From the IMG/VR virus record IMGVR_UViG_3300022752_000013: a stretch of DNA of 64,000 nucleotides. One strand, 5' to 3'. Origin of the DNA: a virus (Duplodnaviria > Caudoviricetes). Both the position numbers and the translations under genes were made by a program. Under the pieces are notes generated by a model. It was not told where the DNA came from and searched no databases. It was given only the letters and a program-made list of their open reading frames with translations. Positions 7,461 to 62,576 of the stretch are shown here, piece by piece (positions within the stretch are counted from its first letter, which is position 1; each line of letters starts with the position of its first letter).

Positions 7461-8585
7461 CTAGTCGTTAGTTTTTAATCCAGCATTTTTTAATATACTA
7501 GATAATTCTGTAGATTCGGCCATGCCACCTTTACGTTGTACTGGTACTTTTTCTTTCGATTTCAAATCAGGAGTCAGATCAACCTCGGGTCGGGTTGGTG
7601 CCGGTAATGCAGGAGTATCTTTTGCATACTGAACTGGACCCATGTCCTTGACTGTGGGGGCAGGCGCTTGATCTCCCCCACCAGCAACTCCTTTTGCCAA
7701 TCCGGCAAATCGCGATACGTTTGCCAGGTCCGTTGAAGAGTTGTCATCTGGGTCAATGTTAGCCTGCCACATTTTATACATTTTCTCGCGTACCTGGTCC
7801 GGGCTTAGAGCATTTGATAATTTGCTTGGATCGATATATTTCTCGCTATCTATCTTTACAGGTTTACCACCGCTAGTGGCTGTGAATTTCGTATATTTGT
7901 GAAAACGACTACCCGAACTCGAGCCATCACTTCTTATTATACTTTTAAGTTCTTCAACTGGGTCAGTTTCACGATTATCTCTAACATAGGTGTCCCCAAT
8001 ATTTCCATCAAAGTCGGTTTTGTAAATTATAATTTTGTTTTCTTCTGGCGTATTACTAGCATAATAATCATAAGGTTCACTGTCGTCTGGTTCCTTTAGT
8101 TTATTTTGATAACGCCAGTCACTTGGGTCATCGGCTCTTGACCTGAATGATGATTTTACTTTTGCAGGATTGATAGCGACACTTTGAAGATGTTTGATCA
8201 GTTGAGCAGCCGCCAGTTCGGGATTTTGTCGATACAAATCTAGTAAATCAAACATTTGATCTGTAGCAGATATATCATATTCATCATCAGCATCGGGATC
8301 GGCCTCTATATAATCAAAACCCAAATCGTGAGCCATGTCTTCCTGGGCATCAAACAGATCATCGTCATCCTCTGCGTCCCATTGATTGAGATGATCTTGA
8401 ATGCCTTTTAACAATGCAATTCCGGCCGGGATAGGCATAGTGGCAACACCTGCTGGTGTTGACAGCAGTTTAACTACAGGTGCAGGCACAGCCGCTGAAG
8501 CCGCAAAACTTGCCAGACCTTTAAGGAATCCACGACGATTTAGTTGTTCTTGTGCTTCGTTGACGTATTGTTTAAAAGTTTTCAT
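7461..8585 (-). CDS. putative internal head/ejected protein with capsid-targeting leader and Tat motif
   Basis: MKTFKQYVNE-A leader, then NRRGFLK plus an Ala-rich h-region. Confidence 0.65.
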   Translation of the reverse strand: MKTFKQYVNEAQEQLNRRGFLKGLASFAASAAVPAPVVKLLSTPAGVATMPIPAGIALLKGIQDHLNQWDAEDDDDLFDAQEDMAHDLGFDYIEADPDADDEYDISATDQMFDLLDLYRQNPELAAAQLIKHLQSVAINPAKVKSSFRSRADDPSDWRYQNKLKEPDDSEPYDYYASNTPEENKIIIYKTDFDGNIGDTYVRDNRETDPVEELKSIIRSDGSSSGSRFHKYTKFTATSGGKPVKIDSEKYIDPSKLSNALSPDQVREKMYKMWQANIDPDDNSSTDLANVSRFAGLAKGVAGGGDQAPAPTVKDMGPVQYAKDTPALPAPTRPEVDLTPDLKSKEKVPVQRKGGMAESTELSSILKNAGLKTND

Positions 8586-8594
8586 GACGTTTCC

Positions 8595-10217
8595 TTAGCG
8601 TTTCCTTACATTTCGACCCAGCACATCCTTGGTCATCTTGACTGCTTGACTTTGTTTGGCGGCTTTGGCACCCGGTCCAGTCAAGCGTTTTTTGTCAGTT
8701 TCTGCGTCCAGGGTGTCAGTGCTGACTCCAGGTCCCATGTAGTCCACAAGTTCGCCTGCTCGGCTCGGACCGGGTGCATCTGTGGTAGCCGCCTTTTCGA
8801 CGTTGGGAATCGCTTGAGGTTTTTCATTGATTCCAAACACCAGTTTACCACCTGAACTAGCAGTCGAACTATAACTCTTTTGTGCTTCCAGCGTGACTTC
8901 ACTAAACAACGTGCCGGGCCATATGGTTCTAAAACCTTTGATAATAATTTGACCGTCTTTGCTCTTGGTAGCATCAGTGTACATTTGCACAAAGGCCGAA
9001 TGGTTGAGAATGTCAGACGCCGCGTCTGAAAAATCGGTCTTTAAATTGATTTCGTTGCAGACTTTGTATGCAATAGAAGCCACCAGATGATTGAGTGGAA
9101 CAACCTTGCTGGGGTTTTCAGCAGTGCGATCGTGGTACAATTGTTTGAGATTGTCTGACAGATCGGTTTTGTCAATATTAAATTTTGGATTGCCTGCTGA
9201 TTGTTTGAGACTCATCACTTGAGGTATTTCATCCTTAGTGATAATTCCAAACTGCACAGCCAAGTTTAACGGACCAGAGTTGTGATCACCTTTGTCGATG
9301 GTGTTGAGAATATCAACAACCTCAGGATAATTCTGTGCAAACTCAGGCATGCCCGCGGCTTCCAGTTCACGCAAGGCAACCAACAAGTTCACACTACTGG
9401 CCTTGGCACCAGTAGCACCCTTGCTTGAAAGTTTGATTTGTTTACCCTCGGGACTGACCAACAAAGAGTCGTATAAGCCACCACTCACATTGGCATTAAA
9501 ACTAACGGTACAACCTGCAAATCCGTTTCTACCCATGAACAGTGCCGCTGCCTCACCAGCATTGCCTTTAACTTGGCCGCCATTGATCAACACACAGGGC
9601 TGTAGCATTTCACAAAAGTAATCACGAAAGCCTGTGAAGTCTATGCCTGTTCCATCAACCGACACAGGAAAAGTGGGCGAATTCATTATGATTTCAGACG
9701 CTCGGTATTCAGAACTGTCCACAGTAAACTTTTCACCAATTTGTGCCAGGATACTAGCAGGGGTTTGTTTCTTGAGATCAGTCAGAACATCACTGGGCTT
9801 GTAACCGGCTTTTTCCTTGCTACCACGAGCATCCGCTTGTTTGAATCCTCCGGGTATGTCTTTGGTTTGGAAAAATTTGTTTGCATCAAAAACAGGTTTG
9901 ATTTCTGAAGTAAATTTGGCTAGGTAGCGTGTGCCCACAGCAGTGTCAAATGCGGCAATACCAAATGCTCGTGTGGCGGCGGTGGGTTGATTGACTTTTT
10001 CAATTGGGTGATCAAGTGATTGCTCTGCAGTTATCCAAGCGTCCATAAAATCATGAGCATCTTTATACTTGCCAACTTTAGGATAGAATGTTAATGATTT
10101 AAACACGATTTGATCGTCGGCACTGTCACCTCTTTTGTATACAGCACCGGATTCTCTACCGCTGAGTCCGCGGCTTTCTGCAATTGAGTCTAGTAGGTTG
10201 ATTAAATCTCGCATCAT
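8595..10217 (-). CDS. hypothetical protein, possible PD-(D/E)xK-like fold, with leader MMRDLINLLDSIAE
   Basis: Start moved to 10217 (RBS GGAG); YDSLLV..KLSSKG resembles a D...SxK nuclease motif. Confidence 0.55.
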   Translation of the reverse strand: MMRDLINLLDSIAESRGLSGRESGAVYKRGDSADDQIVFKSLTFYPKVGKYKDAHDFMDAWITAEQSLDHPIEKVNQPTAATRAFGIAAFDTAVGTRYLAKFTSEIKPVFDANKFFQTKDIPGGFKQADARGSKEKAGYKPSDVLTDLKKQTPASILAQIGEKFTVDSSEYRASEIIMNSPTFPVSVDGTGIDFTGFRDYFCEMLQPCVLINGGQVKGNAGEAAALFMGRNGFAGCTVSFNANVSGGLYDSLLVSPEGKQIKLSSKGATGAKASSVNLLVALRELEAAGMPEFAQNYPEVVDILNTIDKGDHNSGPLNLAVQFGIITKDEIPQVMSLKQSAGNPKFNIDKTDLSDNLKQLYHDRTAENPSKVVPLNHLVASIAYKVCNEINLKTDFSDAASDILNHSAFVQMYTDATKSKDGQIIIKGFRTIWPGTLFSEVTLEAQKSYSSTASSGGKLVFGINEKPQAIPNVEKAATTDAPGPSRAGELVDYMGPGVSTDTLDAETDKKRLTGPGAKAAKQSQAVKMTKDVLGRNVRKR

Positions 10218-10246
10218 GTACTTATCTCCGCGATAAGTAAACCACA

Positions 10247-11254
10247 ATGAATATCACAATACCCATAGAAGTCAGCGGAGATATATGGTACAACGAAGTT
10301 GAAGTGCAACAAAAATTAAAAGAGTTATCCAGCGACGTCGAAATTACACTAGATTTACGCAGTGAAGGTCCTAGTCTACATCGTTTAGGCGTTGTTGCTA
10401 TGGTTGATGCCTGGCTTGCTAGACACAATTTGCTACCAACTGCAATCACTGTTACTAAATGGAGTAATGCCGGCGAATCTATTGCTTATAAAAAATTCCA
10501 GTGTAGTGTGCCCAGTCATTTTTGGTACTTTGCACGAGAATATCAACTGCAGCCAGAACAAGATTTTGGTGGCATAAAATCACACTTGTTTGGATTGTTC
10601 TTGGGCCGAGCAACAGTGCACCGTAATGCAATTTTGTATCAGGTGCAACAACAATGGGACAATAGATTTTTGATCAGTAGATTAACAGCACTCACACCCG
10701 AAGGTACTCCAGTGCCTGAACCTTGGCACATACGCAATTTCAAAGGTTGGTGCTTGCCAGAAACTCTAGCAGATTGGGCACCAGACAATCAACAAGACGT
10801 CATTGATTGGTTTGCCACACAAAAATTCTCAAGCCTAGACGGTAGAACTATTCGAGATCAATATGGAGATCCAGACAACCACTTTGTACATAATCGCAGT
10901 ATGATAAGTCATTATCACCGATTCAATATAGAACTTGTGTGTGAAAGTTACACGCTGGGTCAAACATTTTTCCCTACGGAAAAAACAGCAAGGCCTATTG
11001 CAGGAACACGGCCTTGGATCATCTATGGAGCATCAGGTTACATTCAACGGTTGAAACACATGGGCTTTTGTAGTTTTGATTCTGTATGGGACGAATCTTA
11101 TGATCAACTGGAAGGACCTGCTAGATGGTTGGCCATGAAAATAGTGATTCAGTCGCTGATTGATCTGGATGCCACAAAACTAAATTCTGTGCTGGAACAA
11201 GCCCATGCAATTGCATTGCACAATAGATTACATCTAGAAACATTATACCCATGA
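10247..11254 (+). CDS. GT10-like protein, paralogue 2
   Basis: ELVCES..FFPTEKTARPI..PWIIYG..GFCSFDSVWDESYD. Confidence 0.55.
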   Translation: MNITIPIEVSGDIWYNEVEVQQKLKELSSDVEITLDLRSEGPSLHRLGVVAMVDAWLARHNLLPTAITVTKWSNAGESIAYKKFQCSVPSHFWYFAREYQLQPEQDFGGIKSHLFGLFLGRATVHRNAILYQVQQQWDNRFLISRLTALTPEGTPVPEPWHIRNFKGWCLPETLADWAPDNQQDVIDWFATQKFSSLDGRTIRDQYGDPDNHFVHNRSMISHYHRFNIELVCESYTLGQTFFPTEKTARPIAGTRPWIIYGASGYIQRLKHMGFCSFDSVWDESYDQLEGPARWLAMKIVIQSLIDLDATKLNSVLEQAHAIALHNRLHLETLYP

Positions 11255-12240
11255 TAATTACGACATTTGATCAAGGCTGGGGACGTGAATACCCGCTCAA
11301 ACAGTACGAGCAAGGTATTGTGAGTGATCTTGTGAAACCGTTTGTTAAGAGTGATCAACGTGTGGTCATAATCAACAGCGTGTGGTACACTGGGGAAATG
11401 CACGAACAAGTGATGTTGTGGTTGCGTGAGAATGAGTGGGATCAGATTGTGTTGATTGCCATGTTGGATGCTGCCATACCCTATCCTGACCGCTATGAGG
11501 AATTTGGTCGTCCGGTCACCGGTATAGGTTACTATCCGGGCGCAGGTCAAGTGGATTTTTGTGCATTATTTGTTGATCACTTTTTACAGGCCCCTGATAA
11601 CACTGTATTGTTGGAGGTCAACACAATTGACACTGCATACATGTGTTTGAATCGAAAACCTCACTGGCACAGACAAAAACTATACAGCAAACTACAGGCC
11701 ATGAATCTGGTCAATCAAGGCATTGTGAGCATGGGCGGCGACGGGCAGGCTGTAGTAGCATTGGCACAAGATCGAGATCACGACACCCTGGCACCCAATG
11801 CCACTAGCGATCATTATGGTATACCCAACGATATTGTGAGTTTGGGACACCCGGGTAATTGGCAACGACACCTGCTCAATGTGGTCACTGAAACCTTTTA
11901 CAACATAAATAGTTCAGGCTTTGTAAGTGAAAAAATCTACAAACCCATTGTGGGTTGCAGACCGTTTTTGGTATATGACCCAGATGGTGGCACACGTTGG
12001 TTGCGTGATCGAGGGTTTGAACCTTACACACAGGACTTTGAGGACATTTCGAATTTGGATCTGGCAGAACCACACAACCTACCCGGATTTCTAAAGGTTC
12101 TGTGTGAGCAAACACCTGCGTACTGGCAAAAGAAATTTGTTGACTTACAGGAAAAAATCCTATACAATCAGGCTCACTTTGCTGATTACGTCAAACAGCA
12201 ACAATCTATAGTCGAAAAAGGAATACCATGCCCCATTTAG
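11251..12240 (+). CDS. GT10-like protein, paralogue 3
   Basis: [26 protein letters not shown]; [12 protein letters not shown]. Confidence 0.55.
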
Positions 12241-12824
12241 TGCCAATTGTGCTTGAACAAACTGCCAAAGGCGAGCGCAGTTACGATATCTACAGTCGTC
12301 TATTAAAAGACCGTGTGATCATGCTGGACACAGAAGTGAGCGAACACACAGCCAGTCTGCTGGTAGCACAAATGCTGTTTTTGGAAAGTGATAACCCTGA
12401 TAAAGATATTTCCTTGTATATTAATTCGCCAGGTGGAAGTGTAACAGCGGGCATGGCCATTTATGATACCATGCAGTTTATTCGCTGTGATGTACAAACT
12501 ATCGTAATGGGACAGGCCTGCTCCATGGGGTCGTTGTTGGCCACAGCAGGAGCCGCAGGCAAACGTATGATCCTGCCCAATGCCCGACACATGATTCACC
12601 AGCCATCAGGTGGTGCTTCAGGACAAGCCACAGACATCCAAATTCAAGCACGTGAAATTCAAAAGATGAAAGAGTATCTTACCAACATCTATGTCAAACA
12701 CAACACAGCAGGCAAAGACTACGATGTACTGAGTGCAGACATGGAACGTGATTTCTTCATGAGTGCCCAAGAAGCAGTGGACTATGGTTTAGCAGATCGA
12801 ATCATCAATCAACGTGACCAATAA
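12228..12824 (+). CDS. clpP: ATP-dependent Clp protease proteolytic subunit (canonical)
   Basis: [40 protein letters not shown]. Confidence 0.95.
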
Positions 12825-14094
12825 TTTAAAAAACAATTTTTGTCCCAGCCCGTGGTTCCATATGAGAATCAACAATGCCGGGCATTATGAATACTGTCGT
12901 TGGGCGGCAACAGATCAACGCTATTCTGCTGACAATATCTACAACATAACACCAGTTGAGTTTTTTCAACAACGCATGACCAGTGTTAGACAAGAGTTAG
13001 CAACAGGTAATTCACCTCCTGGTTGTGCAAAATGCACACAGATGGAACGTCACAACAAAATCAGCGGACGACAAAAACAACTGCTCAAAGCAGGTGTTAG
13101 ACTTGAACATTTTGAAAAGACTCTAGCATCATCGCCGTGGTTGACAGAATTTGCCCAAGGTGGCGAGACAACACAAATGCCCCAGGATTGGCAAATAGAT
13201 CTTGGCAACTATTGCAACGGTGCCTGTGTATTTTGTAGCCCACATTCAAGTTCGCGCCTGGCGTCGGAGTTTAAAAAGATCGGCATCATCAATGATCTAC
13301 CACCTGCAAACTGGACCGACGATCCTGTGCGGGTTCAACAGTTGGTTGATACCTTGATCTCAAGTTCACACATACAATACTTGCATTTCATTGGTGGTGA
13401 AACACTGATAACTCCCGCATTCAAAACCATACTTGAGGCTCTGATTCAAGCCGGCTTGAATCGCACGGCCACAATTGGGTTTACTACTAATCTAGGCGTA
13501 TGGCGCGATGATGTGGTTGAACTGTTGACCCAATTCCAGGGAGTGAATCTTGGCATGAGTGTGGAGAGTTTTAAGATTGTGAATGACTATGTGCGTTATC
13601 CTGTGTGTTTGCCCACTGTGTTTGAAAGTATGGAACGTTGGTTAGAAATAAGTCAGCAACAAGATTGGTTAGTGCAGTTTAGAACCACGCCCACAGCACT
13701 CACAGTTGGTCACATGCTAGGAGTATATGAATATGCCTGGCACCACAACATTGCTGTGGAAAGTTGTAATTTTTTAAACAAGCCTGAGTGTTTGCGCCCA
13801 TCAGTTCTGCCTCTGGAATACAGACAACGCATTGTGTCCGACCTTGAAGCCTGGATAGACCAGCATCCGGTTGGCAGCGATGTGGTAGTAAACATTCGTG
13901 ATCCAAATGTAGCCCAACAACAAATTGTACAGGATCTACAGAGTTATGTGAATTATCTCAAGGCCGAATCGGATGAAAGTTGGCGTCTGCCAGACCTAGT
14001 TGAGTATTTGAAAAGACTGGAAGCCAATCGTGGCAACTCAATTGTAACTTATTTGCCTGAATATGAAGAACTTTTTACAACTGCTGGATACTGA
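12814..14094 (+). CDS. radical SAM protein with N-terminal SPASM/twitch-like Cys cluster
   Basis: CNGACVFC (CxxxCxxC), FIGGETL, FTTN; N-terminal FCPSPW..YC..CAKC. Confidence 0.85.
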
Positions 14095-14311: not shown

Positions 14312-14366
14312 GGGTGAACTTCCCAACCTTCATGTGCCCAACGACACAGCATCAATAGATCTGCAA

Positions 14367-14734: not shown

Positions 14735-14744
14735 TCTTGGGAGT

Positions 14745-22632: not shown

Positions 22633-23010
22633 ATGAACTTAGAAACTATCATAGCCGCCATGTTTACCGGAGTAGGATTTGGTGTGATTGTGTTCTTGCT
22701 ATTTGTTTGGATAATATCTCGACGAATCCAGTTTCGGATTGATTCAGAAATATCGGGTGTGATAGAAAAATTAGCCCAGGATCGACTGATAGCACTCACG
22801 GTGGAAATTGACAACAATCAGTACTTCTGCTACAATGCACTTACCAAAGACTTTGTATGCCAAGGCTACAGTTTGAAAGAAATCATAGAACGATTTCGTC
22901 TGCGTTATCCCGACAAGGCCGCCGCAATATATGACGGCGATGAAACAGCAGTACAGACACTCAAATCTCAAATGGATCAACTTGATAAATCAGACACAGT
23001 GCAATCTTAA
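22633..23010 (+). CDS. membrane-anchored hypothetical protein
   Basis: N-terminal TM helix; TAAATA at 22609-22614. Confidence 0.7.
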   Translation: MNLETIIAAMFTGVGFGVIVFLLFVWIISRRIQFRIDSEISGVIEKLAQDRLIALTVEIDNNQYFCYNALTKDFVCQGYSLKEIIERFRLRYPDKAAAIYDGDETAVQTLKSQMDQLDKSDTVQS

Positions 23011-24091
23011 AGGCACCCAAAAATTATTTTTTATCCAGTTAAATCAGGCTGCCTCTTGTTGTAGAAGTAATCTTGAATCGTTGCCGGCTGACATGTCAGA
23101 CTTGCTTGAGCATTGGCAACTGGAACATGATCAATTGACACAAGGCATTGCCGTTCAAAATTGTTCTGTTTGTTGGAAACAACAGGCCCAAGGTCATACA
23201 TCTTGGAGACAACTACACGGTCACCAGAATAACAACACCGTTGAACTGTGGTTGAACAATTCCTGCAATCAAATGTGTAGTTATTGTAGTCCAAAATTCT
23301 CTAGCACTTGGCAACAGAATATCATTGACCACGGACCTTTTGAAAATATCAGTAGCACAGCCAAATCCAATCTTGACCTGCCACCAATAGCAATAGATCA
23401 GCAACAGTGGATAGAAAAAATAGGTGAATATTTACAATCTCAACCTCCAGAATCAGTTGATCTAAAGTTGTTGGGCGGTGAGCCCTTGATGCAGATTCGA
23501 AATTTACAAAAATTAATTGATCTTTCTGGTAATAGTATAAATCAACTGATGATAAACACCAATCTCAATCCTCCCAACAATCGATTCCTGCATTGGTTAT
23601 TGGACACAGTGCCTGCTTACAAACTCAAATTTGAGATAAGTCTAGACGCCAGTCCCAAATATAATCATGTGCCAAGAGCAGGATTTGATCCAGAACGATT
23701 CCATACCAATTTAGAATTGCTGATTGAAAAAAATATAAATTTTGGTTTTTTGTCGGTTATGAGTGTGCTGAGTATTTTTGACTTGCCCGACTTTACGAAA
23801 TGGTCTCAACCATATCAAGTGGCATTTAACAAAATCAACAATCCGGATTGCCTGGACCCAATTTGGTTACCAATGGAAATCTTAGACCAAATAAACAACC
23901 AGTTTGAGCAAGAACCGCCAATGATTTTCCAAGAATTATACAACAAGCCGCAATCTTTGGTTGACCTAAAATTGTTTGAGCAGTATAATTACTTGTGTCA
24001 GTATTTTTCTAGAACTGGCATAAACATCAAACAAATCGATAATCTCTTGTTCCAACAATATTGGACTTGGCTAGAAGAAAGACAAAAATGA
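22931..24091 (+). CDS. radical SAM protein
   Basis: CNQMCSYC, LLGGEPL, INTN; true start uncertain. Confidence 0.75.
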   Translation: MTAMKQQYRHSNLKWINLINQTQCNLKGTQKLFFIQLNQAASCCRSNLESLPADMSDLLEHWQLEHDQLTQGIAVQNCSVCWKQQAQGHTSWRQLHGHQNNNTVELWLNNSCNQMCSYCSPKFSSTWQQNIIDHGPFENISSTAKSNLDLPPIAIDQQQWIEKIGEYLQSQPPESVDLKLLGGEPLMQIRNLQKLIDLSGNSINQLMINTNLNPPNNRFLHWLLDTVPAYKLKFEISLDASPKYNHVPRAGFDPERFHTNLELLIEKNINFGFLSVMSVLSIFDLPDFTKWSQPYQVAFNKINNPDCLDPIWLPMEILDQINNQFEQEPPMIFQELYNKPQSLVDLKLFEQYNYLCQYFSRTGINIKQIDNLLFQQYWTWLEERQK

Positions 24092-30934: not shown

Positions 30935-31399
30935 ATGAATTTCATGATTGAAAATTTATTGGGTAAGCAAGCAGATAAAAAGGTTACCTTTGCTCAGGCA
31001 TTTAAAACTTTGCTAGATATGGACTTGATCAACATTGGCGAAGTAGGCGAGCAGACTATTAGTAATGCCAGTGGTGTTGAAAGATGTCCTCGCAATACCG
31101 CTAAAATTGATTTAGTATCAGGTGTGCAAATTAAAACCGCACAAACCCATCCTGACAAAGAAAAATTGCAGGCGTATTTTGCACCAGGTAACACCAACGC
31201 CCCAATATTGTTAATGGTAATAGAAAGATTAACTGGAAAAGAGTACTTTTTCTTTTTTCAATATAAAGATTACAAAAATACAATCGGTTCTAGTGTTTGT
31301 CTACCGTTTTTCTTGGATGGAACCCCACGTCGATCTAACAGTTGGTGGGATTACGAAATTACATTCGATGAACTTTGTAAGTTAGCAAAAAATGATTAA
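30935..31399 (+). CDS. putative PD-(D/E)xK (QxK variant) nuclease
   Basis: GEVGEQ helix, IDLVSGVQIKT. Confidence 0.45.
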   Translation: MNFMIENLLGKQADKKVTFAQAFKTLLDMDLINIGEVGEQTISNASGVERCPRNTAKIDLVSGVQIKTAQTHPDKEKLQAYFAPGNTNAPILLMVIERLTGKEYFFFFQYKDYKNTIGSSVCLPFFLDGTPRRSNSWWDYEITFDELCKLAKND

Positions 31400-31955
31400 T
31401 CTTAAAGAATCCTTAGACCAATTCACAGCACCGGTGTACGGCAAAACCAAACGCACCGCTGACACTTATCAGACGGTAGCCGACTATTGTCGCCGCAACT
31501 TGGTTCGCTTGGTTGCTGACTATCATGCCGTTCAAAACGATCAACAACTGCTGAGAGAGATCCGCAACGACATTGACACATATCTACGCAGGTATCACGA
31601 GTACTGTATCCAACAACGTGATGGTATGAAAGCACACTACCACGAAATTGGAGCGGATGAAGAATGTGATTTTGAGCATTTGATTCCAGCGGCTCGTATT
31701 CGTGACTTGCTTTTGGCCAGTGCCATTTCTGTAGAGCAGGCTCTCAATGCACCAACTGTGAGGTTGAGTCGTTCCAAACACATGGCTCTTAAGGAAGCAG
31801 GTTGGGCCAGTACCACTCCAGACATGTGGCAACCGTTTAGGCGTTACACTCAAGTGTTTGACGCTAAGTACGAAACACATGATGGAACACCAATTGACCC
31901 CGAAACTTGGACCTTGCAACAGCACTTTGACTATTTCAAGCATCTTGTGCTTTAA
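31392..31955 (+). CDS. putative His-Me finger (HNH-like) protein
   Basis: DFEHLIP followed by VRLSRSKH. Confidence 0.45.
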   Translation: MINLKESLDQFTAPVYGKTKRTADTYQTVADYCRRNLVRLVADYHAVQNDQQLLREIRNDIDTYLRRYHEYCIQQRDGMKAHYHEIGADEECDFEHLIPAARIRDLLLASAISVEQALNAPTVRLSRSKHMALKEAGWASTTPDMWQPFRRYTQVFDAKYETHDGTPIDPETWTLQQHFDYFKHLVL

Positions 31956-40843: not shown

Positions 40844-40853
40844 GTAATTGCTT

Positions 40854-41072
40854 ATGGCAAAAGAAGATATTATAAACATGGAAGGCCGTGTTGAAGAGGT
40901 ACTACCGGCTACCATGTTTAGGGTCAAGTTAGACAACATAGACGCTCAGGTATTAGGACACTTGAGTGGGCGTATGCGCAAAAACAACATCAAGGTGTTG
41001 CTAGGAGATCGGGTTGAAATGGAATTTTCACCCTACGATCTTACCAAGGGTCGTATTACCCGACGCAAGTAA
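40854..41072 (+). CDS. infA: translation initiation factor IF-1
   Basis: [43 protein letters not shown]. Confidence 0.95.
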
Positions 41073-41074
41073 AC

Positions 41075-42640
41075 ATGTATCATGTAAAATTAAATGATTC
41101 AACTGCTCGAGTACTATTCCTTGGCAACAACAATGAATCTACAGATCATCAAGTGTCAACTCTGGCAACAGAACACGACATTGTCAATCATGGACTAGTA
41201 ATCGAATCTAAGGTTGTTCATGACCAACCAGGATTTTATCATACCACTGTGGTAGACATTCCCTGGGGCGATTTAATTTCATTTGCATCAAAATTTGATT
41301 TGATTGTCATGTTAGATCAGCCGCAGGCTCAATGGAGTCATTGGAAATGCATGCAGGCCACATTTAAGTTAATGGTCAAACTGGAACAAATGGGGTGTGA
41401 TACTGTATTTCGTAACAATAAAAATATTAAAAAAATCTTATATTGGTCCGACTTGGTGTACAAAGAAAACAAAAGTTTTTGTATATACCCATGGATTAAT
41501 TTCTTCAATGACGGAAAAGAACTTAGATTATGTTCACGTGCTGACACTGCGGTGACCAAAATTGATCAATTTCAAGACTGGAAGTCTGATCCTAATTATA
41601 CCCAAATTCGCGATTCAATGTTACAAGGTCACAAACTGCCAGAACATTGCAAAGTGTGTTATGAGTATGAAGATCATGACATTGAAAGTTACAGGCAATT
41701 TGAAACCATGGACTGGGCAGTGCAATTGGATTTAGAAACAGTTGAAGATCTGGAGAAAATTCAACACCCTTATTTTTACGAAATTCACACAGGTAATCAT
41801 TGCAACATCAAATGTAGAGGTTGTCAACCAGCGTTCAGTGAGCCCATTGGTAAAGAATTAAAAAAATTCAATATTGTCACACCCGGTACCATGATGTGGA
41901 CTCCCAGCACGTCAACTCTAGATCAAATCAGCATAGACGACTTAGACAGCAAATCTACTGTTTATTTTCAAGGCGGCGAACCCACGATCATGCCAGAAGT
42001 TCTGGACTTTATGAAACAGTGCATCAAGAAAAATCAGACAGATTTCAATCTCACCATGTGTACCAACGGAGTAAAATTTTCTGACGAATTTTTAGAAACA
42101 GTTTCGCATTTTCCCAACACCAATTTTAGTTTCAGCATTGATGGGTACGCCAAGGTCAATGACTACTGGAGATCAGGATCCAAATGGGACCGAGTCATAG
42201 CAAATGCACACATGATACAGAATCTTGGTCATTCTGTCAGTATTAACACTGTGCCGGGTATTTACAATGTGACCAACTTGCATCTGTTGTTTGAATTTTT
42301 AGATCGTGAATTCCCGTTTACTGCTATCTATCTACAAATCAATTACCTGGCTTGGCAGTCAGCATTCAATCATCCTCGTCAAGATCTAGTAGTTGAATCC
42401 ATGCTCAAATGCATGCAGACATCTGTGTATCATTCCAATGGTAAAAGTTGCAAAAGTGGTATAGACAGCATTTACAATCATTACAACAATAATCCAGTTT
42501 GTGACCTCAAAGATCTCAAAGATTTTTTTGCATACAACGATCAGTTGGACCGTGCTCGCGGCACAAAACTAGCAGATTACATACCTGAATTAGAGGCCGC
42601 AAGAAGTTACATTTTGGAACTCAATCATGAAACCATGTGA
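41075..42640 (+). CDS. radical SAM protein with SPASM/twitch-like domain and N-terminal extension
   Basis: CNIKCRGC, FQGGEPT, CTNG, FSIDG; FCIYPW..C..HCKVC. Confidence 0.85.
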   Translation: MYHVKLNDSTARVLFLGNNNESTDHQVSTLATEHDIVNHGLVIESKVVHDQPGFYHTTVVDIPWGDLISFASKFDLIVMLDQPQAQWSHWKCMQATFKLMVKLEQMGCDTVFRNNKNIKKILYWSDLVYKENKSFCIYPWINFFNDGKELRLCSRADTAVTKIDQFQDWKSDPNYTQIRDSMLQGHKLPEHCKVCYEYEDHDIESYRQFETMDWAVQLDLETVEDLEKIQHPYFYEIHTGNHCNIKCRGCQPAFSEPIGKELKKFNIVTPGTMMWTPSTSTLDQISIDDLDSKSTVYFQGGEPTIMPEVLDFMKQCIKKNQTDFNLTMCTNGVKFSDEFLETVSHFPNTNFSFSIDGYAKVNDYWRSGSKWDRVIANAHMIQNLGHSVSINTVPGIYNVTNLHLLFEFLDREFPFTAIYLQINYLAWQSAFNHPRQDLVVESMLKCMQTSVYHSNGKSCKSGIDSIYNHYNNNPVCDLKDLKDFFAYNDQLDRARGTKLADYIPELEAARSYILELNHETM

Positions 42641-43722
42641 TCTCAAGAGACGTATCACTTGTAGAAAATAATTTTATGTCAGCAACCGATTTACGCAAGC
42701 AATCTTTTTATAATTTCCAATTAGGTAAAATAGAGTTCTCCGCAGAAACAATCATACCTGCAACCGATGACATTGTTCCTTTTTTGAATTTATATGCAGT
42801 TTTGTATTATGGACATTTTCATAAACAAGTTTATATTGACAGATTTTTGCAGGTACGAAATCAATTAGTACAACAACTCATTGATTTGTCAGCATACAAG
42901 TCTTGTCAATGGTCGGATCATTTTTTTGAGAATAGGGGTTCATATCAAAGTGCATCATTTATCATGTACATGTGTAGACTGGCCAGTGACACGGTATGGA
43001 ATTTTCCTACATTGTGCAATTATAGTAAATGGGTAAATGGTGGTAGCAGGTCTGTGGCAACTGGCATGCATAAACGTGATCCGTGGAATAGTGTGTTGGG
43101 CTTCGAGTTAGTTGAATTAGGGCAATCAAGCACCATGCTATCTGATCCCAAAGAAATAACATCCACTGAGATGTTGCACAATGTTCTACAATTAGATAAC
43201 AACCCGCCACACGATTCAGCAAAAGTTATGTTAATCACTGAATTAATAAAAAATAAAATTTATTTTCTATCAATCGAAAACAAATTAGACAAGTTTGATA
43301 ATTTTAGTAATATTAACAGTTATAATATTTGGGATAGTTATTCCGCCTGGCGGAGTCAATACCCAATAAAACCAAAAATAAAAATATACACTAACTGGCC
43401 CGAACAAATACACAATTACTTCGACGCTTGGGACATAGTAGAAATTGAGTCTGGCCAACACATCATTGATGAAATTCAAGGCTTTGGCGGAAGATCAGGA
43501 AGATTGGAACGCTTTGCAACCGAGGAATACCGAAATCCTAAAGAAATCGTGGACCATGTGTTGTATGTAATTGATCCTAGACCAATTGAACTTGGTGAGT
43601 TGTTGATATGGATGGACATGGAACACAATGCTTACATCGAATCGGAATGGAAGTTTCTTTTGTATAGAAAAGCAGATATCTACAAAACCACTTACATTGA
43701 CACAAGTTATATCATGCAATAA
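42637..43722 (+). CDS. hypothetical protein
   Basis: 361 aa, AT-rich, coupled to the radical SAM gene. Confidence 0.7.
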   Translation: MISRDVSLVENNFMSATDLRKQSFYNFQLGKIEFSAETIIPATDDIVPFLNLYAVLYYGHFHKQVYIDRFLQVRNQLVQQLIDLSAYKSCQWSDHFFENRGSYQSASFIMYMCRLASDTVWNFPTLCNYSKWVNGGSRSVATGMHKRDPWNSVLGFELVELGQSSTMLSDPKEITSTEMLHNVLQLDNNPPHDSAKVMLITELIKNKIYFLSIENKLDKFDNFSNINSYNIWDSYSAWRSQYPIKPKIKIYTNWPEQIHNYFDAWDIVEIESGQHIIDEIQGFGGRSGRLERFATEEYRNPKEIVDHVLYVIDPRPIELGELLIWMDMEHNAYIESEWKFLLYRKADIYKTTYIDTSYIMQ

Positions 43723-43729
43723 ATACAAC

Positions 43730-44272
43730 ATGCGCAAACACATCGATTTATTAGAAGCAACAACCCGTCCAGCCAAATTGGAAACAATCCCTTTGCCATA
43801 CGGTGAAGACGACCTAAATCCTGTGCTCAGCGGAGACAGTATCAATTATCATTATGAGCATTTGGCCAAGGGCTATGCCAAACGCTACAACGCCGGCGAA
43901 GGTGATTCAGATTTCAATCGTGCTGGCAGTTTCTTACACAACAAGTTTTTTCCACAATTGCAACCTCCCAAAGGCAACAACCGCCCACGTGGTGCTGTAC
44001 TGGAACTGATTGAACGCAAGTTCAAGAGTTACGAAAACTTCCAGGATGAAGTTAAAAAAGTCGCAATGAAGATCCAAGGTTCTGGGTGGGTGTATTTGAG
44101 CACCGGTGGTGAAATCAAAACCATTCGCAATCATGCAGTGCGTACAGATATATGCGTACTTATTGACTGGTGGGAACATGTTTGGGCCTTGGACTACCAG
44201 TGGGAAAAAGAAAAATACCTGGACAATATCTGGCGTATCATCAATTGGGACGTTTGTTCTGATAGACTATAA
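43730..44272 (+). CDS. Fe/Mn superoxide dismutase with short leader MRKHIDLLE
   Basis: Ligand positions NYHY, FLHNKFF and DWWEH retained; QGSGWVYL; TAAATA at 43720-43725. Confidence 0.88.
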   Translation: MRKHIDLLEATTRPAKLETIPLPYGEDDLNPVLSGDSINYHYEHLAKGYAKRYNAGEGDSDFNRAGSFLHNKFFPQLQPPKGNNRPRGAVLELIERKFKSYENFQDEVKKVAMKIQGSGWVYLSTGGEIKTIRNHAVRTDICVLIDWWEHVWALDYQWEKEKYLDNIWRIINWDVCSDRL

Positions 44273-57896: not shown

Positions 57897-58455
57897 TGCC
57901 GACGGCGTTATCTTAGATTGGGAATATGCCTTCTCAGTCTGGATGGAAGAGCATGGCTTTGTGAGAACTGAAGGCAGTCAGTTCATGTATGATATAGGAC
58001 AACGCTACGGAATTGACCATGAACAAGGTCGCAAGTTGATTAAGATTTTTAACGAATCGGCTGCCATTGGTTTTTTGCCTCCATTACGTGATGCCATGTA
58101 TTATGTCAAACGCTTGCACGAAGAACACGGTTACGTATTTCACTGTATTACCAGTCTAAGTCTTGATGCCAACGCCGGCAAACTGAGAGAAATGAATCTA
58201 CGTAAGTTATTTGGAAAAACTGCATTTGAACGCATTGTGTGTTTGGACACCGGTGCAGACAAGAATGATGCATTGAGTGAGTATCAGAATTCTGGTTGTC
58301 ACTGGATTGAAGACAAACCGGAAAATGCTGAAGTTGGACTAGATTTAGGTTTACGTAGCATCCTGATGGAGCATGGGCATAATATGAATCATGTCAACGA
58401 ACAAATTCCGGTAGTCAAAAACTGGCGAGAAATTTACGAAATCGTCACCTCCTAA
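57841..58455 (+). CDS. HAD-family 5'(3')-deoxyribonucleotidase-like phosphatase
   Basis: LVDADGV (DxDG), CITS, K, WIEDK. Confidence 0.85.
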   Translation: MSNLKKPQKYNPKQLILVDADGVILDWEYAFSVWMEEHGFVRTEGSQFMYDIGQRYGIDHEQGRKLIKIFNESAAIGFLPPLRDAMYYVKRLHEEHGYVFHCITSLSLDANAGKLREMNLRKLFGKTAFERIVCLDTGADKNDALSEYQNSGCHWIEDKPENAEVGLDLGLRSILMEHGHNMNHVNEQIPVVKNWREIYEIVTS

Positions 58456-59186: not shown

Positions 59187-59195
59187 GTGCGATTC

Positions 59196-59233
59196 TCCTT
59201 TTGAAACAGCCGGTCTGGCTGTGTGAATATTTA
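59196..59233 (-). promoter_or_regulatory. late-type TAAATA plus 5'-UTR hairpin before phoH
   Basis: Minus strand TAAATA (59228-59233), then ACAGCC-AGACC-GGCTGT, then RBS AGGAG. Confidence 0.5.
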
Positions 59234-59349
59234 GGTGAGTTAGCCCGGAGTTTTCTGACCATGTATTTCAGATATTTCTAGCATAAGTATTCCACTGTCC
59301 GGAGCAAATTTAAACAAACCCGGAATTGATGTTTGCCATAAATATCTGC

Positions 59350-59958
59350 ATGGCACTCAAAGACGAAGCAATTTTTAAAGATCATCAGGATTACTGGATG
59401 GTGGCTGACAACATCCGCGATATCTATCTATCAGAAGGCAGTTTGCTTACTCTCCTGGATTTTGAGCGTGTGCTGGACGAAATGGACTTGTATGCATTCA
59501 AAAACTGGGACCGCGGTGAACTGGTACAAGGTCCCGACATTGGCAAGTACAAAGTGGGCTGTATCTTTATGTGGCCGGAAAAACTCATGCCTGATCCACG
59601 TGGCGCACGTCGACTGCTGCCGTTTGATTGCGATGTCAAGTTCAAAAAAACCACTATCAAAATACCCATCAAAGTGGAGCAACCTGCAGACTACATGGCT
59701 GGTACGCACACCGCTCGCTTGGTGGACAAACATGTATGGCTGGTGGAAATTGTCATGCCCAAGGCCTTGATTTCAGACATCCGCACAGGATCAATTGAGT
59801 TGGAAGACGAGGAAATTGATCTAGAAGATTTGGATTCAGCCTATCAAGAAGATCTTGATGGAGAACAATATCAAAATGACCAGAGCGCAGAAAATGCACA
59901 ACAATCACTACAACAACCAGGAGCACCAATTGCAGCCGCACCGCCAGTCGCTTCTTGA
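59350..59958 (+). CDS. hypothetical late protein
   Basis: TAAATA at 59339-59344; acidic C-terminus. Confidence 0.75.
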   Translation: MALKDEAIFKDHQDYWMVADNIRDIYLSEGSLLTLLDFERVLDEMDLYAFKNWDRGELVQGPDIGKYKVGCIFMWPEKLMPDPRGARRLLPFDCDVKFKKTTIKIPIKVEQPADYMAGTHTARLVDKHVWLVEIVMPKALISDIRTGSIELEDEEIDLEDLDSAYQEDLDGEQYQNDQSAENAQQSLQQPGAPIAAAPPVAS

Positions 59959-60478
59959 AGGTCTTGGCTACAAAGACCTTGAGGGCATACTCAAGCCCAC
60001 TATTCACATTGATGAATTCTCATCCAAAATGGGTGACGATGATGACATCATTGTTGTGAGTTTCTTTGCCCGTGACAAAGCCGCTGCCAAGGACCTGATG
60101 AATTGGTTTGAAAAAGGCTATGACTTTGTGCTGGACGCTGATCAAAGCCCTGGCGAAATCAAACCCAATAGATATCTGGTTTACGTGGAAATGCGACGTC
60201 GCAGAGCCGCTCCTGAGCAGATCAACGAACTCTTGGAAGACCTGGCTACACTAACAGAGTTTGAACCTGAAGACTGGACCATGGTCTACAAGGAAAAGAC
60301 ACACCCTTGGAGTACTGAAGAATTTGCTCGCTTGGTGCCACTCAGTCCAAGAGAGTATCGCGAGCGCACAGAGCGCGATCTCAACGAATGGCGCACGGCC
60401 GCAGGTTTGCCTGTGAAGGCCACTTACGATCGAGATGATGCTATTCGCACGATACAATCCGCCGCAGGTATCCTATGA
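59894..60478 (+). CDS. hypothetical protein
   Basis: LLE-GL..IHIDEFSSKMG; start overlaps the upstream gene. Confidence 0.7.
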   Translation: MHNNHYNNQEHQLQPHRQSLLEGLGYKDLEGILKPTIHIDEFSSKMGDDDDIIVVSFFARDKAAAKDLMNWFEKGYDFVLDADQSPGEIKPNRYLVYVEMRRRRAAPEQINELLEDLATLTEFEPEDWTMVYKEKTHPWSTEEFARLVPLSPREYRERTERDLNEWRTAAGLPVKATYDRDDAIRTIQSAAGIL

Positions 60479-61389
60479 GACTGAGAGAATTTGCACCCTC
60501 AGGTGGCGGAGATTCAGGCAACTACTTCCAAGCCCTGGCCTCGGCCTGGTACAATGGTACCTTTGACACAGGTAGTCTGCAAAAAGGTATCAAGAGTCAA
60601 CAAGATGTTGAACGTTTACTAAATCGCGGCATTGTTTGTCCTGATGGTAAAACACGTAAACTGCATATTGATTACAATGGTGACTTTGACGGTGTGGAAA
60701 TCTACAGTGATGACTACTATGAATATGGTGATCACGATGACACTATAGACAGTCGCACAGGACAAAAGTGGGGACCATATGATTTTATGGCCTTTTCAGA
60801 TGAGGACTTGAGCGAAGGCCTAAATGAATTTGCAGCCGATGATGGTGACAGTGGCGGTGAAGACGATGCCTTACATAACTACGCTAGAATGTGGTGGGCC
60901 GGAGACGAAGCAACACAAATGCAAATTGAAGCCGCACTGGCAAAAATGGGCTGGGAAATTGGCGAAGACGAAGGCGGCTACGACAACGGTGGCGTGTTTG
61001 TGATACGTGCTGGTGACATCAATGGCGATAGTTACGTCTCATGGGCCGCAGAAGATTTAACAGAAGGTGTATGGGACAATATTAAAAAGTCTTTTACTCC
61101 TGACCCTAATTGGCAAAAACGTGCTGGCCAAGCGGCAGGACACGTGGCACAGGGTGCTGTGGCCGGAGGAGCACACGGCCATGCTGTGGGCCATGCTATG
61201 GCAGATACCGGAGTACACGAAGGCGACTTGAATGAAAAGTCCACAAGCCAAGCACAGTTCCGCACAATGGCAGCGGCTGCGCACAATCCCGAGTTTGCTC
61301 GCAAAGTAGGCATCAAACAATCAGTAGCACGAGAGTTTAATCGCGCTGACAAGAAATCCAACTACAAAGCATTGCCCAAAAAGGCCTAA
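60475..61389 (+). CDS. modular putative internal head polyprotein
   Basis: Modules separated by LRE, LSE/LNE, LTE and LNE; two modules begin EFA..GG. Confidence 0.65.
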   Translation: MRLREFAPSGGGDSGNYFQALASAWYNGTFDTGSLQKGIKSQQDVERLLNRGIVCPDGKTRKLHIDYNGDFDGVEIYSDDYYEYGDHDDTIDSRTGQKWGPYDFMAFSDEDLSEGLNEFAADDGDSGGEDDALHNYARMWWAGDEATQMQIEAALAKMGWEIGEDEGGYDNGGVFVIRAGDINGDSYVSWAAEDLTEGVWDNIKKSFTPDPNWQKRAGQAAGHVAQGAVAGGAHGHAVGHAMADTGVHEGDLNEKSTSQAQFRTMAAAAHNPEFARKVGIKQSVAREFNRADKKSNYKALPKKA

Positions 61390-61397
61390 GGTACCCA

Positions 61398-61826
61398 ATG
61401 AGACAGTACATCAATCTTGTGGAAGCGGTGCAAAAGGGCTGTCCTATTGCCACGCATGATATCACCTTAAATCTTAAAAATCGCCAAACAGCCATTGACG
61501 ACTATCACTACGGCCCGGCTAATCCACTAGAGCCAGGCGACTATTGGGCAGGTGCTGCCAAGCGTTGGGCGGTGCCAGAAAAAACTGTAAAGACCATGCT
61601 TTGCGGCAACTGTGCGGCGTTTGATGCCAGTGACAGTATGCGCAAGTGTATCGAGTCAGGAATCCAAGGCGATGAAAAACATGCAGACGCTGTGGCCACA
61701 ATAAACTTGAGTGATCTTGGCTACTGCAATTTTCTACACTTTAAATGTGCTGGAACCAGAACCTGTGCGGGCTGGGTAGTAGGCGGTCCTATCACTGAAA
61801 AAGATCGCGGGCAAAAGGCCAACTAA
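61398..61826 (+). CDS. Cys-rich protein with leader MRQYINLVE
   Basis: CGNCAAF, GYC..LHFKC..RTC. Confidence 0.7.
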   Translation: MRQYINLVEAVQKGCPIATHDITLNLKNRQTAIDDYHYGPANPLEPGDYWAGAAKRWAVPEKTVKTMLCGNCAAFDASDSMRKCIESGIQGDEKHADAVATINLSDLGYCNFLHFKCAGTRTCAGWVVGGPITEKDRGQKAN

Positions 61827-62576
61827 ATGAATCTGGGTGATATCTTTGAATCCAGCGGCCCTAGTTTAGAGGGCAGTTACACGCCGGATCTGGTGTTCAG
61901 CAAACTGTGGCTGGCCCGTGAACTCAAATTGATACTGGAACAACAGGGCGTTGAATCAGTACCTGTTGCTTACATACTGGGCTCTTGGTACAGCAATCTC
62001 AGCACAATCCTACGCAGAACAGGCGTGCCTATTGATCGAATTGTGGATGTAGAACAACGAGGCGAATGGTTGCGTACTGGTCAGCAATTGCAACAAGATA
62101 TGAATATTTCAGGTGTGGAACACATGCAGGCTGATGTCAATGAACTAGACTACAGACAACTTGAACAGCCCGGACTAGTCATAAACACCAGCATCAACGA
62201 CATTGCTGACCACGGATGGTTTGATAATATTCCTGACGGCACCCTGGTGATCATGCAAGGACGAGATGCTGTGGAACAAAACGCATACGAATCTCCTGAA
62301 GAACTGTTACAGGCATATCCATTAGAATCAGTACTGTATTCAGGCACATGGGACCTGGAAGATCCTGAAACTGAGTATCAACGCTCAATGGTCATTGGCA
62401 TCAAAGGACGTGAGCAATTGAGTGAATTACAGTTCCTGGGCTCAACCTGTACCAAGGACTGCTCAGGACATCGTGCTGGCTACAATTGGAGCAAGCGCAA
62501 AGGTTTGGTTCAGGCCAACAGTCCCTGGAGTCCCAGTTTCAACAAAGGCGCCGCACTGGCAGTGGCTGGAAAATAA
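61827..62576 (+). CDS. methyltransferase-like domain plus C-terminal CTKDCSGH module
   Basis: YILGSWY..VDVE..ADVN..VINTS; LSE precedes CTKDCSGHRAGY. Confidence 0.55.
   Translation: MNLGDIFESSGPSLEGSYTPDLVFSKLWLARELKLILEQQGVESVPVAYILGSWYSNLSTILRRTGVPIDRIVDVEQRGEWLRTGQQLQQDMNISGVEHMQADVNELDYRQLEQPGLVINTSINDIADHGWFDNIPDGTLVIMQGRDAVEQNAYESPEELLQAYPLESVLYSGTWDLEDPETEYQRSMVIGIKGREQLSELQFLGSTCTKDCSGHRAGYNWSKRKGLVQANSPWSPSFNKGAALAVAGK

Follow-up and report, generated by a model that had tools for sequence, protein, structure and literature searches.

Short N-terminal leaders on unrelated proteins of an uncultivated jumbo myovirus are probably capsid-targeting propeptides

Why should proteins that have nothing else in common begin with the same kind of short peptide? 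This question is raised by the virus record IMGVR_UViG_3300022752_000013, from which we analysed one stretch of 64,000 nucleotides (here called the window, at its full length). An earlier note made from the letters alone (the original prediction) had listed seven N-termini between positions 7,461 and 62,576, had compared them with the leaders of the T4 internal proteins (IPs), and had proposed that they load unrelated proteins into the phage head, where a gp21-like protease would remove them. Translation recovers all seven N-termini at the positions and on the strands given in Table 1, and the proteins behind them, P0001 to P0007, are unrelated to one another: their Pfam, fold and BLAST results differ. 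The window comes from an uncultivated jumbo myovirus related to PA5oct and RaK2. Its phage nature is clear from tail-fibre-like proteins, three radical S-adenosylmethionine (SAM) enzymes, a glycosyltransferase, a clamp-loader-like gene, ClpP and a superoxide dismutase (SOD); megablast with an 8-kb query against 50,697 deposited phage genomes found no near relative. We conclude that the leaders are probably capsid-targeting propeptides of the T4 kind, cut by the prohead protease and carried by cargo of the head. Every indirect test available to us supports this core of the original prediction: an S77 protease and a T4-type head module in five of five relatives, a match to the T4 pattern, leaders swapped between orthologs, the same L-x-E junction within longer orthologs of P0005, and enrichment of leader-bearing proteins among those detected in PA5oct virions.

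The T4 internal proteins' capsid-targeting sequence (CTS), together with its processing by gp21, was reportedly described by Mullaney and Black in 1996. It is established that T-even phages load a variable set of proteins into the head by means of the CTS (PMC9026906, PMC3012670), positions 4 and 7 being important for targeting and positions 8 and 10 for processing (PMC9026906). The leaders in the window are 5–15 residues long, have the form of an amphipathic helix and end in hydrophobic-x-Glu, usually followed by Ala, Ser or Gly; Pro and Gly are absent from the five leaders of P0002–P0006, and one Gly occurs in that of P0007. At the sequence level the seven leader ends, VNE/A, IAE/S, IKE/A, LLE/A, LRE/F, LVE/A and IFE/S (a slash marks the predicted junction here and below), bear out the (L/I)-x-Glu-type gp21 motif that had been seen in them. 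In five of the six proteins other than P0005, the leader end is the only [LIV]xE[ASG] of the whole protein. The leaders of P0002 and P0007, the two for which AlphaFold models were inspected, are short low-confidence helices outside the folded core. Two of the starts were settled by orthologs: those of P0002 begin at the second Met, at 10214 (MRD, not MMRD), and those of P0004, whose longest open reading frame (ORF) runs from 43628, all begin at the Met of MRKHIDLLE, at 43730, right after the stop codon of the upstream gene.

When the T4 RefSeq genome was searched at the DNA level with the pattern M-K-T-[FY]-x-[QE]-[FY]-h-x-E, three matches were found, and none with the pattern reversed. Two of the three are ipII and ipIII, both of which start MKTYQEFIAE/A, as the original prediction had stated and as the CTS is also given in the literature; the third is taken up below. 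Applied to the window, this pattern matches once, at the start of P0001, and it was found in none of 100 shuffles. P0001 has Phe4, Tyr7, Val8 and Glu10, so that positions 4 and 7 are aromatic, 8 is aliphatic and 10 is Glu. The spacing in the six other leaders departs from that of T4.

Table 1. Positions of the leader-bearing genes, of one further candidate and of two late-promoter-like boxes in the window (aa, amino acids; nt, nucleotides).
Feature	Position	Strand	Description	Basis
P0001	7461-8585	-	Leader MKTFKQYVNE (8556-8585), then A; 374 aa	Translation
P0002	8595-10217	-	N-terminus MMRDLINLLDSIAE; leader M(M)RDLINLLDSIAE, then SRGLSGR; about 539 aa	Translation
P0003	19649-20191	-	Leader MSTEFLRNYIDIIKE, then A; 180 aa	Translation
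P0004	43730-44272	+	Leader MRKHIDLLE, then A; 180 aa	Translation
P0005	60475-61389	+	Leader MRLRE, then FAPSGGGDSG; 304 aa	Translation
P0006	61398-61826	+	Leader MRQYINLVE, then A; 142 aa	Translation
P0007	61827-62576	+	Leader MNLGDIFE, then S; 249 aa	Translation
Extra candidate outside the seven	31392-31955	+	MINLKE, then S; 187 aa	Matrix score
ATAAATA box	43719-43725	+	4 nt upstream of the SOD (P0004) start; no Shine-Dalgarno sequence	
ATAAGTA box	10219-10225	-	1-4 nt upstream of the P0002 start	

N-termini of this form might be generic, that is, amphipathic helices that contain a Glu by chance or through composition or codon bias and that share no function. Taken as loosely as it had been worded at first, as (L/I)xE near the start, the rule has no discriminating power. 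We counted [LIV]xE within the first 20 residues of 903 predicted proteins from the window and from two related genomes taken whole (G003, 352,754 bp with terminal repeats, and G001, 331,654 bp), and found it in 203 of them (22.5%), against 738 of 3,431 control peptides, which were the 25-mers following internal Met (21.5%); the window alone gave 22 of 103 proteins. Adding the absence of Pro and Gly and a small residue after the Glu brought a modest enrichment (35/903 versus 80/3,345, p 0.02). Expectation-maximization motif discovery on the 903 N-termini found nothing specific and converged on a generic M-K-K-L composition, a result that favours generic N-termini, as does the equal frequency of the loose rule after internal Met. 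A first core regex, [LIVFYHM][LIV][NDE][LIVF][LIVFM], was discarded as too loose, with many chance matches in G001 and G003.

Against generic N-termini stand the stricter leader classes. Class A resembles the T4 CTS and comprises MKTFKQYVNE/A of P0001 and, in G001 and G003, MKTFAQYLTE/S, MKPFAKYLLE/S, MRFREFITE/S, MRAHEFLSE/G, MRANEFVTE/G, MKAREFITE/A, MRAQEFITE/G and several more MRAREF.TE genes. Class B, ..R-x-h-[IL]-[DN]-[LI]-[LIV]..E/[AS], comprises P0002, P0003, P0004 and P0006. Strict leaders of the two classes begin 15 genes of the window, G001 and G003, versus 0.09 expected from shuffled N-termini, and were found in none of 3,337 internal-Met peptides. A six-frame scan from every Met over 1.85 Mb gave 56 matches; of the 17 that were tabulated (window, G001 and G003), 16 lie at the first or second Met of an ORF. 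With a scoring matrix trained on leaders from outside the window, P0004, P0006, P0003 and P0001 rank at the top (p about 0.001; 0.0009 for P0006 and 0.0012 for P0003), and P0002 has a p value of 0.008. Applied to G001 and G003, the matrix and the strict classes point to roughly 10–20 such genes per genome.

The leaders are also conserved. Every one is kept in its orthologs, which range from 4 to about 290 contigs per family. A query with P0002 returned 66 IMG/VR loci, several of them on contigs of 300–350 kb, and all 66 keep a leader that ends in E before [SAG]RGL, with lengths that vary from one ortholog to another (MRDLLNLLDNILAE/S, MRTFIEILTE/G and MLLRHIFETRIEVLIE/G). For the SOD, 213 relatives were found, and nearly all of the 80 loci fetched read ..[IL][DN][LI][LIV]E/A[ST] after a variable number of residues. 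About 290 IMG/VR contigs encode P0006 relatives with MR[NDQK][YLF]I[NTR]L[VL]E/A..KGCP. Orthologs of P0003 begin MSTDFLRNYIDIIKE/A, MSTELFRNYIDLINE/N and MDPRFFRKYANLVE/A, and those of P0001 begin MKITDIINE/G, MKTLKEYINE/S and MKTFKQYIEILE/A, each followed by RRGFLKGLASFAA. In P0007, Glu8 is invariant across 13 aligned orthologs whose leaders differ in length and sequence (MKLLE/F, MRIRHLLE/T, MRFKELNE/I and MILE/S); further orthologs start MKSRDLKE/A and MQTKDFYE/A, and the fold start S-P-x-T-[LF]-x-G-S is common to all. The final Glu is the fixed element, in the sense that it stays in place while leader length varies between orthologs. Synonymous codons are free within the leader, with all six Leu codons and both AGY and TCN codons for Ser in use. 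Because of this freedom we rejected a promoter or an mRNA overlap, that is, a constraint on DNA or RNA, as the reason why the leader is kept; it places the conservation at the level of the protein.

Leaders have moreover been exchanged between orthologs. Some SOD orthologs carry the class A leader MRATEFLTE/SKEK in place of the class B ..IDLVE/AS. The MKITDIINE/G of a P0001 ortholog is nearly the same as MKINDIITE/G of PA5oct gp150 and MKINDVLFE/F of P0005 orthologs. The exact string MKTFKQYV was found in 33 IMG/VR contigs (loci L299-L331), always at the start of an ORF and on 12 mutually unrelated families, usually followed by x-E; Peptidase_S77 is encoded in three of the five longest of these contigs, including the sole near-complete one. 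One of the 12 families, present in 11 contigs, is a 201-aa P-loop kinase-like protein that begins MKTFKQYVTE/VDNKYVYAVEQPKIVLIGGPGSGKST. That strict leaders never follow an internal Met, that hundreds of orthologs keep leader and invariant Glu while synonymous codons vary, that one leader heads 12 families and that leaders are exchanged, together with the T4 control and the enrichment in PA5oct virions described below, makes generic N-termini very improbable in our judgement.

Capsid-targeting propeptides, the reading we prefer, call attention to the head genes of the relatives. Peptidase_S77, the T4 gp21-type prohead protease, is encoded in all five near-complete related genomes of 300–350 kb (E values from 1e-23 to 5e-27). 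In G003 and G001 the genes follow one another in the order portal, 72-aa protein, acidic 275-aa protein, protease, scaffold-like protein and capsid protein. This is a T4-type head module, in which the portal and small core proteins come before the S77 protease and the scaffold and a Gp23-type capsid protein after it. The Gp23-type major capsid protein was present in both of these genomes, the two that were searched for it. It begins with a leader-like stretch of its own, MSQELLE/S...ALLE/G, and is 62–66% identical to the capsid proteins of PA5oct (65% with G003), Vibrio phage 2.275.O, Serratia phage BF, Yersinia phage fHe-Yen9-04 and Sinorhizobium phage Phosso. The contigs found to encode P0005–P0007 were short ones only.

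PA5oct, whose S77 protease is gp152, is the closest cultured relative with virion data. Its GenBank record (MK797984) flags 93 proteins with ESI-MS/MS (electrospray ionization tandem mass spectrometry), which we took as detected in the virion (Lood et al. 2020, PMC7318152). We applied one leader rule to all called genes of PA5oct, requiring that the peptide start at the first ATG, contain no Pro or Gly and end in [LIVFM]xE before A, S or G. Leaders by this rule are borne by 7 of 91 virion-detected genes and, among the rest, by 3 of 244 (odds ratio 6.7, p 0.005); with annotated starts, 10 of the 93 virion proteins carry one. Among the leader-bearing virion proteins are the capsid protein (MSNRLFE/S), gp140, gp175, gp226, gp237, gp238 and gp150, the last being the small core protein that adjoins the portal. 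EST35_0261, which is orthologous in PA5oct to the window's SOD and 39% identical to it over 174 residues (E 9e-40), begins with MNDSIKKYISIAE/A and carries the ESI-MS/MS flag; gp261 is annotated as hypothetical (PMC7318152; MK797984). A search of PA5oct for homologs of P0001, P0002, P0003, P0005, P0006 and P0007 found none.

What, then, would be carried? From sequence and structure comparison, the predicted cargo consists of an Fe/Mn SOD, a protein like a high-potential iron-sulfur protein (HiPIP), a protein with a SAM-methyltransferase fold, a possible nuclease, a membrane protein, a protein with a segment like a twin-arginine translocation (Tat) signal, and a polyprotein. The SOD is the clearest case. 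The SOD named among the cargo on first reading is confirmed in P0004 by Pfam Sod_Fe_C (1.4e-20; 73.7 bits against a cut-off of 20.9) and by SODs in the PDB (E 3e-23), and the sequence identifies P0004 as an Fe/Mn superoxide dismutase with a predicted shortened N-terminal hairpin. Sod_Fe_N scores 24.3, just under the cut-off of 27, because of this shortened hairpin. An 8-residue linker follows the leader, and the SOD fold begins from residue about 18, about 17 residues later than in cellular FeSODs. Three of the four metal ligands align exactly, namely the His in YHY and both the Asp and the His in DWWEH; the second His (FLHNKFF) is one position off in the alignment and is conserved in PA5oct.

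P0006 has a Cys-rich domain after the leader, and its GenBank homologs are named high-potential iron-sulfur protein; they align to P0006 from residue about 14–26 onward, that is, past the leader. Smaller unrelated phages also have P0006 homologs, located within their head gene regions. In the Actinomycetia phage DSL-LC01 (OQ999401, 63051-65614) a homolog with a longer, different N-terminal extension lies directly upstream of the capsid maturation protease, a neighbourhood that hints at an association with the head. A methyltransferase-like domain had also been named among the cargo; in P0007, Foldseek confirmed a class I SAM-methyltransferase fold at about residues 20-192, with matches to the PDB methyltransferases TehB, aKMT and METTL5 (E 4.6e-9, probability 1.0, TM 0.5–0.6). 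Its motif I is atypical, LGSWY(S/G)N and not GxGxG, no Pfam family matched it, and its tail is disordered and contains Cys and His.

P0005 looks like a polyprotein of small modules, to judge from its repeats. Its module, LRE/FAPSGGGDSG at the start, returns as LNE/FAADDGDSGG at residue 116, and further junctions read LTE/G and LNE/K. The protein contains five L-x-E sites where 0.8 would be expected, and none of 5,000 shuffles reached five. Orthologs start MKINDVLFE/FAPSGGG or MNLNDVFLE/FAPG, and in every one of them [LV]-x-E precedes the FAPSGGG..NYFQALASAWYNG domain, whether this domain stands after a leader of 5–9 residues or after a long polypeptide; the long orthologs have internal junctions such as ..TVNE/FASG, ..GLNE/FAPA and ..RLAE/FAAD. 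The last module is basic and DUF3008-like. The C-terminal 48 aa of P0005 match phrog_16759 and also the N-terminus of families annotated 'virion structural protein' in Asteriusvirus and in phiKZ-like phages.

This chain of small modules with a basic end is what might be expected if the proteins were directed to the prohead as parts of its structure or assembly (core, scaffold-like or DNA-condensing proteins) that are degraded or retained, and not as effectors to be delivered. In T4 the protease likewise cuts gp22, gp67 and gp68, which are core proteins, into small fragments (PMC5694885). The intact enzyme folds of the other proteins, namely the SOD with its ligands, the Rossmann fold of the methyltransferase-like protein and the HiPIP-like Cys-rich domain, are hard to square with scaffold filler, and the closest analogues, the T4 IPs and Alt, are injected. 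We consider it unlikely that the set as a whole consists of such head parts.

A third possibility is that the leaders lead elsewhere, to the membrane or to export by Tat or Sec, or that they serve as degrons or adaptor tags in recognition by Clp. P0001 offers one argument for it. After the leader comes a twin-arginine and hydrophobic segment, RRGFLKGLASFAASAAVPAP, followed by an acidic low-complexity body; residues 11-41, NRRGFLKGLASFAASAAVPAP, are Tat-like and are kept in all three orthologs that cover the N-terminus, with the motif NRRGFLKG and a hydrophobic segment at 23-41 by hydropathy. The Tat models score just below their cut-offs (Pfam TAT_signal, 19.0 versus 22.7; TIGR01409, 15.4 versus 16.7). 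P0003, in keeping with the membrane protein that had been expected among the cargo, has one strong C-terminal transmembrane segment at residues 130-161 by hydropathy. For Clp, one may point to the two Clp-family genes in the window, to ClpX, ClpA, ClpS and ClpP in PA5oct, and to the residues that cleavage after Glu would expose in the P0005 family: Phe, Tyr and Leu, with Phe also in several P0007 orthologs (loci L200-L214, L218-L223). These residues are destabilising under the bacterial N-end rule (ClpS/ClpAP) and would make the cargo short-lived. Yet the same leader types stand on soluble SOD, methyltransferase-fold and HiPIP-like proteins that have no hydrophobic segment; the invariant Glu with a small residue after it fits the gp21 rule and neither the A-x-A of Sec and Tat nor known Clp tags; a leader is also found on the PA5oct head-core protein beside the portal, and a similar site on the capsid protein; and the association with virion mass spectrometry is left unexplained. 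Another destination is, in our view, distinctly unlikely. An import signal for a phage nucleus was also set aside; to our knowledge, PA5oct- and RaK2-like phages have not been described as nucleus-forming.

For P0001 itself, the CTS-like leader and the Tat-like hydrophobic segment might act in series: cleavage in the prohead would unmask the Tat signal as a new N-terminus, and the injected folded protein might then be sent through the host Tat pathway to the periplasm or membrane, or block that pathway. More broadly, this clade of phages might deliver a ready redox and defence kit (SOD, HiPIP-like, methyltransferase-fold and nuclease-like proteins) at infection. We offer this as a speculation with a rather low chance of being right.

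A possible nuclease had been put forward as well, and of this a weak lead is left in P0002, with structure matches below threshold. In the AlphaFold model, residues 15-475 form a folded core, the C-terminal tail is disordered and basic, and the leader (residues 1-12; pLDDT, the predicted local distance difference test, <50) lies outside the core. VIA gave weak matches to restriction enzymes, below the reliable level (Z 4.2 for MspI, 4.0 for NlaIV, 3.6 for SwaI and 3.1 for HinP1I), and Atlas gave leads with scores <0.9 to the R-HINP1I and RE_HaeIII clusters. Foldseek found no match to the fold in the PDB, nor did tblastn find a match to the protein in 50,697 phage records. The orthologs all keep D249 and S263-S264-K265, which could be a variant PD-(D/E)xK motif like that of MspI and HinP1I. 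A PD-(D/E)xK-like nuclease domain is possible on this modelling.

If the leaders are capsid-targeting propeptides, as we think probable, the following sequence of events can be proposed. The leader would dock the protein to the scaffolding core during prohead assembly. The prohead protease would then cleave after the Glu, and in P0005 also at the internal L-x-E sites, as the sequence rule and its conservation suggest; in T4, a change of this Glu to Asp stops the trimming and leaves packaging intact. The mature protein would remain in the head with the DNA, a step to which the PA5oct virion proteome lends indirect support, and would probably exit with the DNA at infection, by analogy with the T4 IPs and Alt.

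Several points weigh against this reading. The strict regexes and the scoring matrix were made after the data had been seen, partly from orthologs of the window proteins, so that the independent checks carry more weight than the counts. P0005 and P0007 are at background on the matrix (p 0.05–0.06) and are supported by their orthologs only, and in P0005 the Glu is followed by Phe, where the other leaders have small residues. The third match to the T4 pattern, MKTFKEFIKE/D, is the start of gp61.1, which is not a known head protein, and the motif is to that extent not fully specific; this match and the background scores of P0005 and P0007 also speak for generic N-termini. (gp61.1 is a 54-aa hypothetical protein encoded beside the primase gene, at T4 NC_000866 18966-19130, and is either an unrecognised head protein or a sign that the motif is unspecific.) The SOD of Vibrio phage 2.275.O, of the same clade, is without an N-terminal leader. 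Clearly non-structural enzymes, namely ribonucleotide reductase, thymidylate synthase, ligase and ClpP, stand on the PA5oct virion list too and are likely carry-over; detection by mass spectrometry is for this reason no proof of a place in the head interior. The S77 protease was identified in genomes of the relatives, the present phage having been read as its 64-kb window, and packaging, cleavage after Glu and injection are steps that we infer for it from sequence comparison.

The C-terminus of this SOD of Vibrio phage 2.275.O (MG592671, 34051-34620) reads ...KMLDE/SVNIRHLINFISK, where an L-x-E site is followed by a class-B-like peptide.

The mechanism that we propose is known from T4; the novelty lies in the lineage, in there being several leader types and in a cargo rich in enzymes. 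Like T4 IPI, IPII and IPIII, the proteins described here share a leader of roughly 10 residues that ends in (I/L/V)-x-Glu before Ala or Ser and that is common to otherwise unrelated proteins; a gp21-type protease and a head module like that of T4 are encoded by relatives of the present phage, and a late-promoter-like box lies upstream of two of the genes. The T4 IPs belong to Straboviridae, whereas the present phage is PA5oct/RaK2-like. It uses several leader types (MKTF.QY..E, MRA.EF.TE, ..R..I[DN]L[LV]E and MKINDI..E), its cargo, as known from sequence, is mostly enzyme-sized or enzyme-like where that of T4 is small and basic, and its genes are scattered over 55 kb where those of T4 lie in one IP locus. 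In the relatives, genes with MRA.EF.TE leaders occur in clusters (G003, 72854 with 73336 and 263121 with 263489; G001, 19734 with 20114), and the cluster regions, at 54–74 kb and 263 kb in G003 and at 19–20, 53–62 and 162–185 kb in G001, look like variable islands of cargo genes, comparable to the IP locus of T4.

T4 Alt, an ADP-ribosyltransferase, offers a precedent for an enzyme that is loaded by means of a short cleavable propeptide and injected to act ahead of phage gene expression, as we propose for the SOD, the methyltransferase-fold protein and the nuclease-like protein. The enzyme classes differ, and no ADP-ribosyltransferase was seen in the window. Alt has gp21-cut propeptides at both ends, and a C-terminal leader-like peptide was noticed here as a single anecdotal case, on the Vibrio phage 2.275.O SOD. 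In the phiKZ-like giant phages phiKZ, 201phi2-1 and SPN3US, the ejection and inner-body proteins are processed by a prohead protease that is homologous and acts at S/A/G-x-E or A-x-E (PMC5694885). These phages would resemble the present one in having many head-internal proteins cut after Glu, theirs including paralogs with conserved N-terminal propeptides, and some of their mature fragments begin with a transmembrane helix (SPN3US gp47), as that of P0001 would. Their propeptides are mostly >100 residues long with a small residue at P3 (A, S or G), whereas the leaders here have 5–15 residues and an aliphatic P3 as in T4; theirs is also another lineage, and a virion RNA polymerase, cargo in theirs, is absent here.

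Cu/Zn SODs are packaged in the virions of chlorovirus PBCV-1 and of Megavirus chilensis. There too an SOD is in the particle, where it presumably blunts the host oxidative response at entry; those enzymes are Cu/Zn SODs and the one here is of the Fe/Mn type, their hosts are eukaryotic, and their packaging route is another one. In the literature that we searched, we found neither a report of a packaged phage SOD nor CTS-like leaders described for PA5oct/RaK2-like jumbo phages. In PA5oct the SOD ortholog and several leader-bearing proteins were detected in the virion, and the parts of the PA5oct paper available to us make no mention of leaders, propeptides or a packaged SOD (PMC7318152). The RaK2 paper gives cleavage of the capsid protein as an inference only, and proteomics of MIJ3 covered four proteins.

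If the leaders work as in T4, loading by a CTS would not be restricted to the T-even phages and would amount to a modular, general route within the wider superfamily of T4-type heads. Environmental jumbo phages would then carry about 10–20 proteins per genome into the host, among them a virion-borne Fe/Mn SOD that is widely conserved (>200 contigs). The leaders would provide a sequence rule by which injected proteins could be predicted among the 'hypothetical' genes of jumbo phages, as candidates for anti-defence functions and host takeover, and such short natural leaders could serve as packaging tags for jumbo phages, as the T4 CTS does in T4.

Boxes of the form ATAA[AG]TA precede two of the leader genes (Table 1). 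In nearly all of 60 distinct sequences upstream of SOD orthologs, ATAA[AG]TA lies 4–5 nt before the start (loci L116-L195), and boxes reading ATAAGTA or TAAATA are repeatedly present upstream of P0002 orthologs (loci L001-L066). The T4 late promoter is TATAAATA. The boxes resemble it, and their position hints at late, nearly leaderless transcripts. No ATAA[AG]TA-type box precedes P0005–P0007 in the window. ATAAATAC is not enriched across the window (2 found, 2.05 expected), so that only its position upstream of the orthologs is informative.

The remaining observations concern other genes of the window. Outside the seven, the weak candidate at 31392-31955 has the fifth-best matrix score in the window (p 0.0045), and no family match was found for it. 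The two genes of the Clp-protease family lie at 6691-7275 (+) and 12228-12824 (+). The former is Pfam CLP_protease (1.5e-25) and adjoins the P0001/P0002 operon; the sole exact TATAAATA of the window, at 6649, precedes it. ClpX, ClpA, ClpS and ClpP, mentioned above for PA5oct, are annotated as such in that phage. The three radical-SAM genes are at 12814-14094, 22931-24091 and 41075-42640 (+). A small gene at 40848-41072 (+), whose N-terminal region reads ...FRVKL, resembles translation initiation factor IF-1 and is preceded by an ATAAGTA box.

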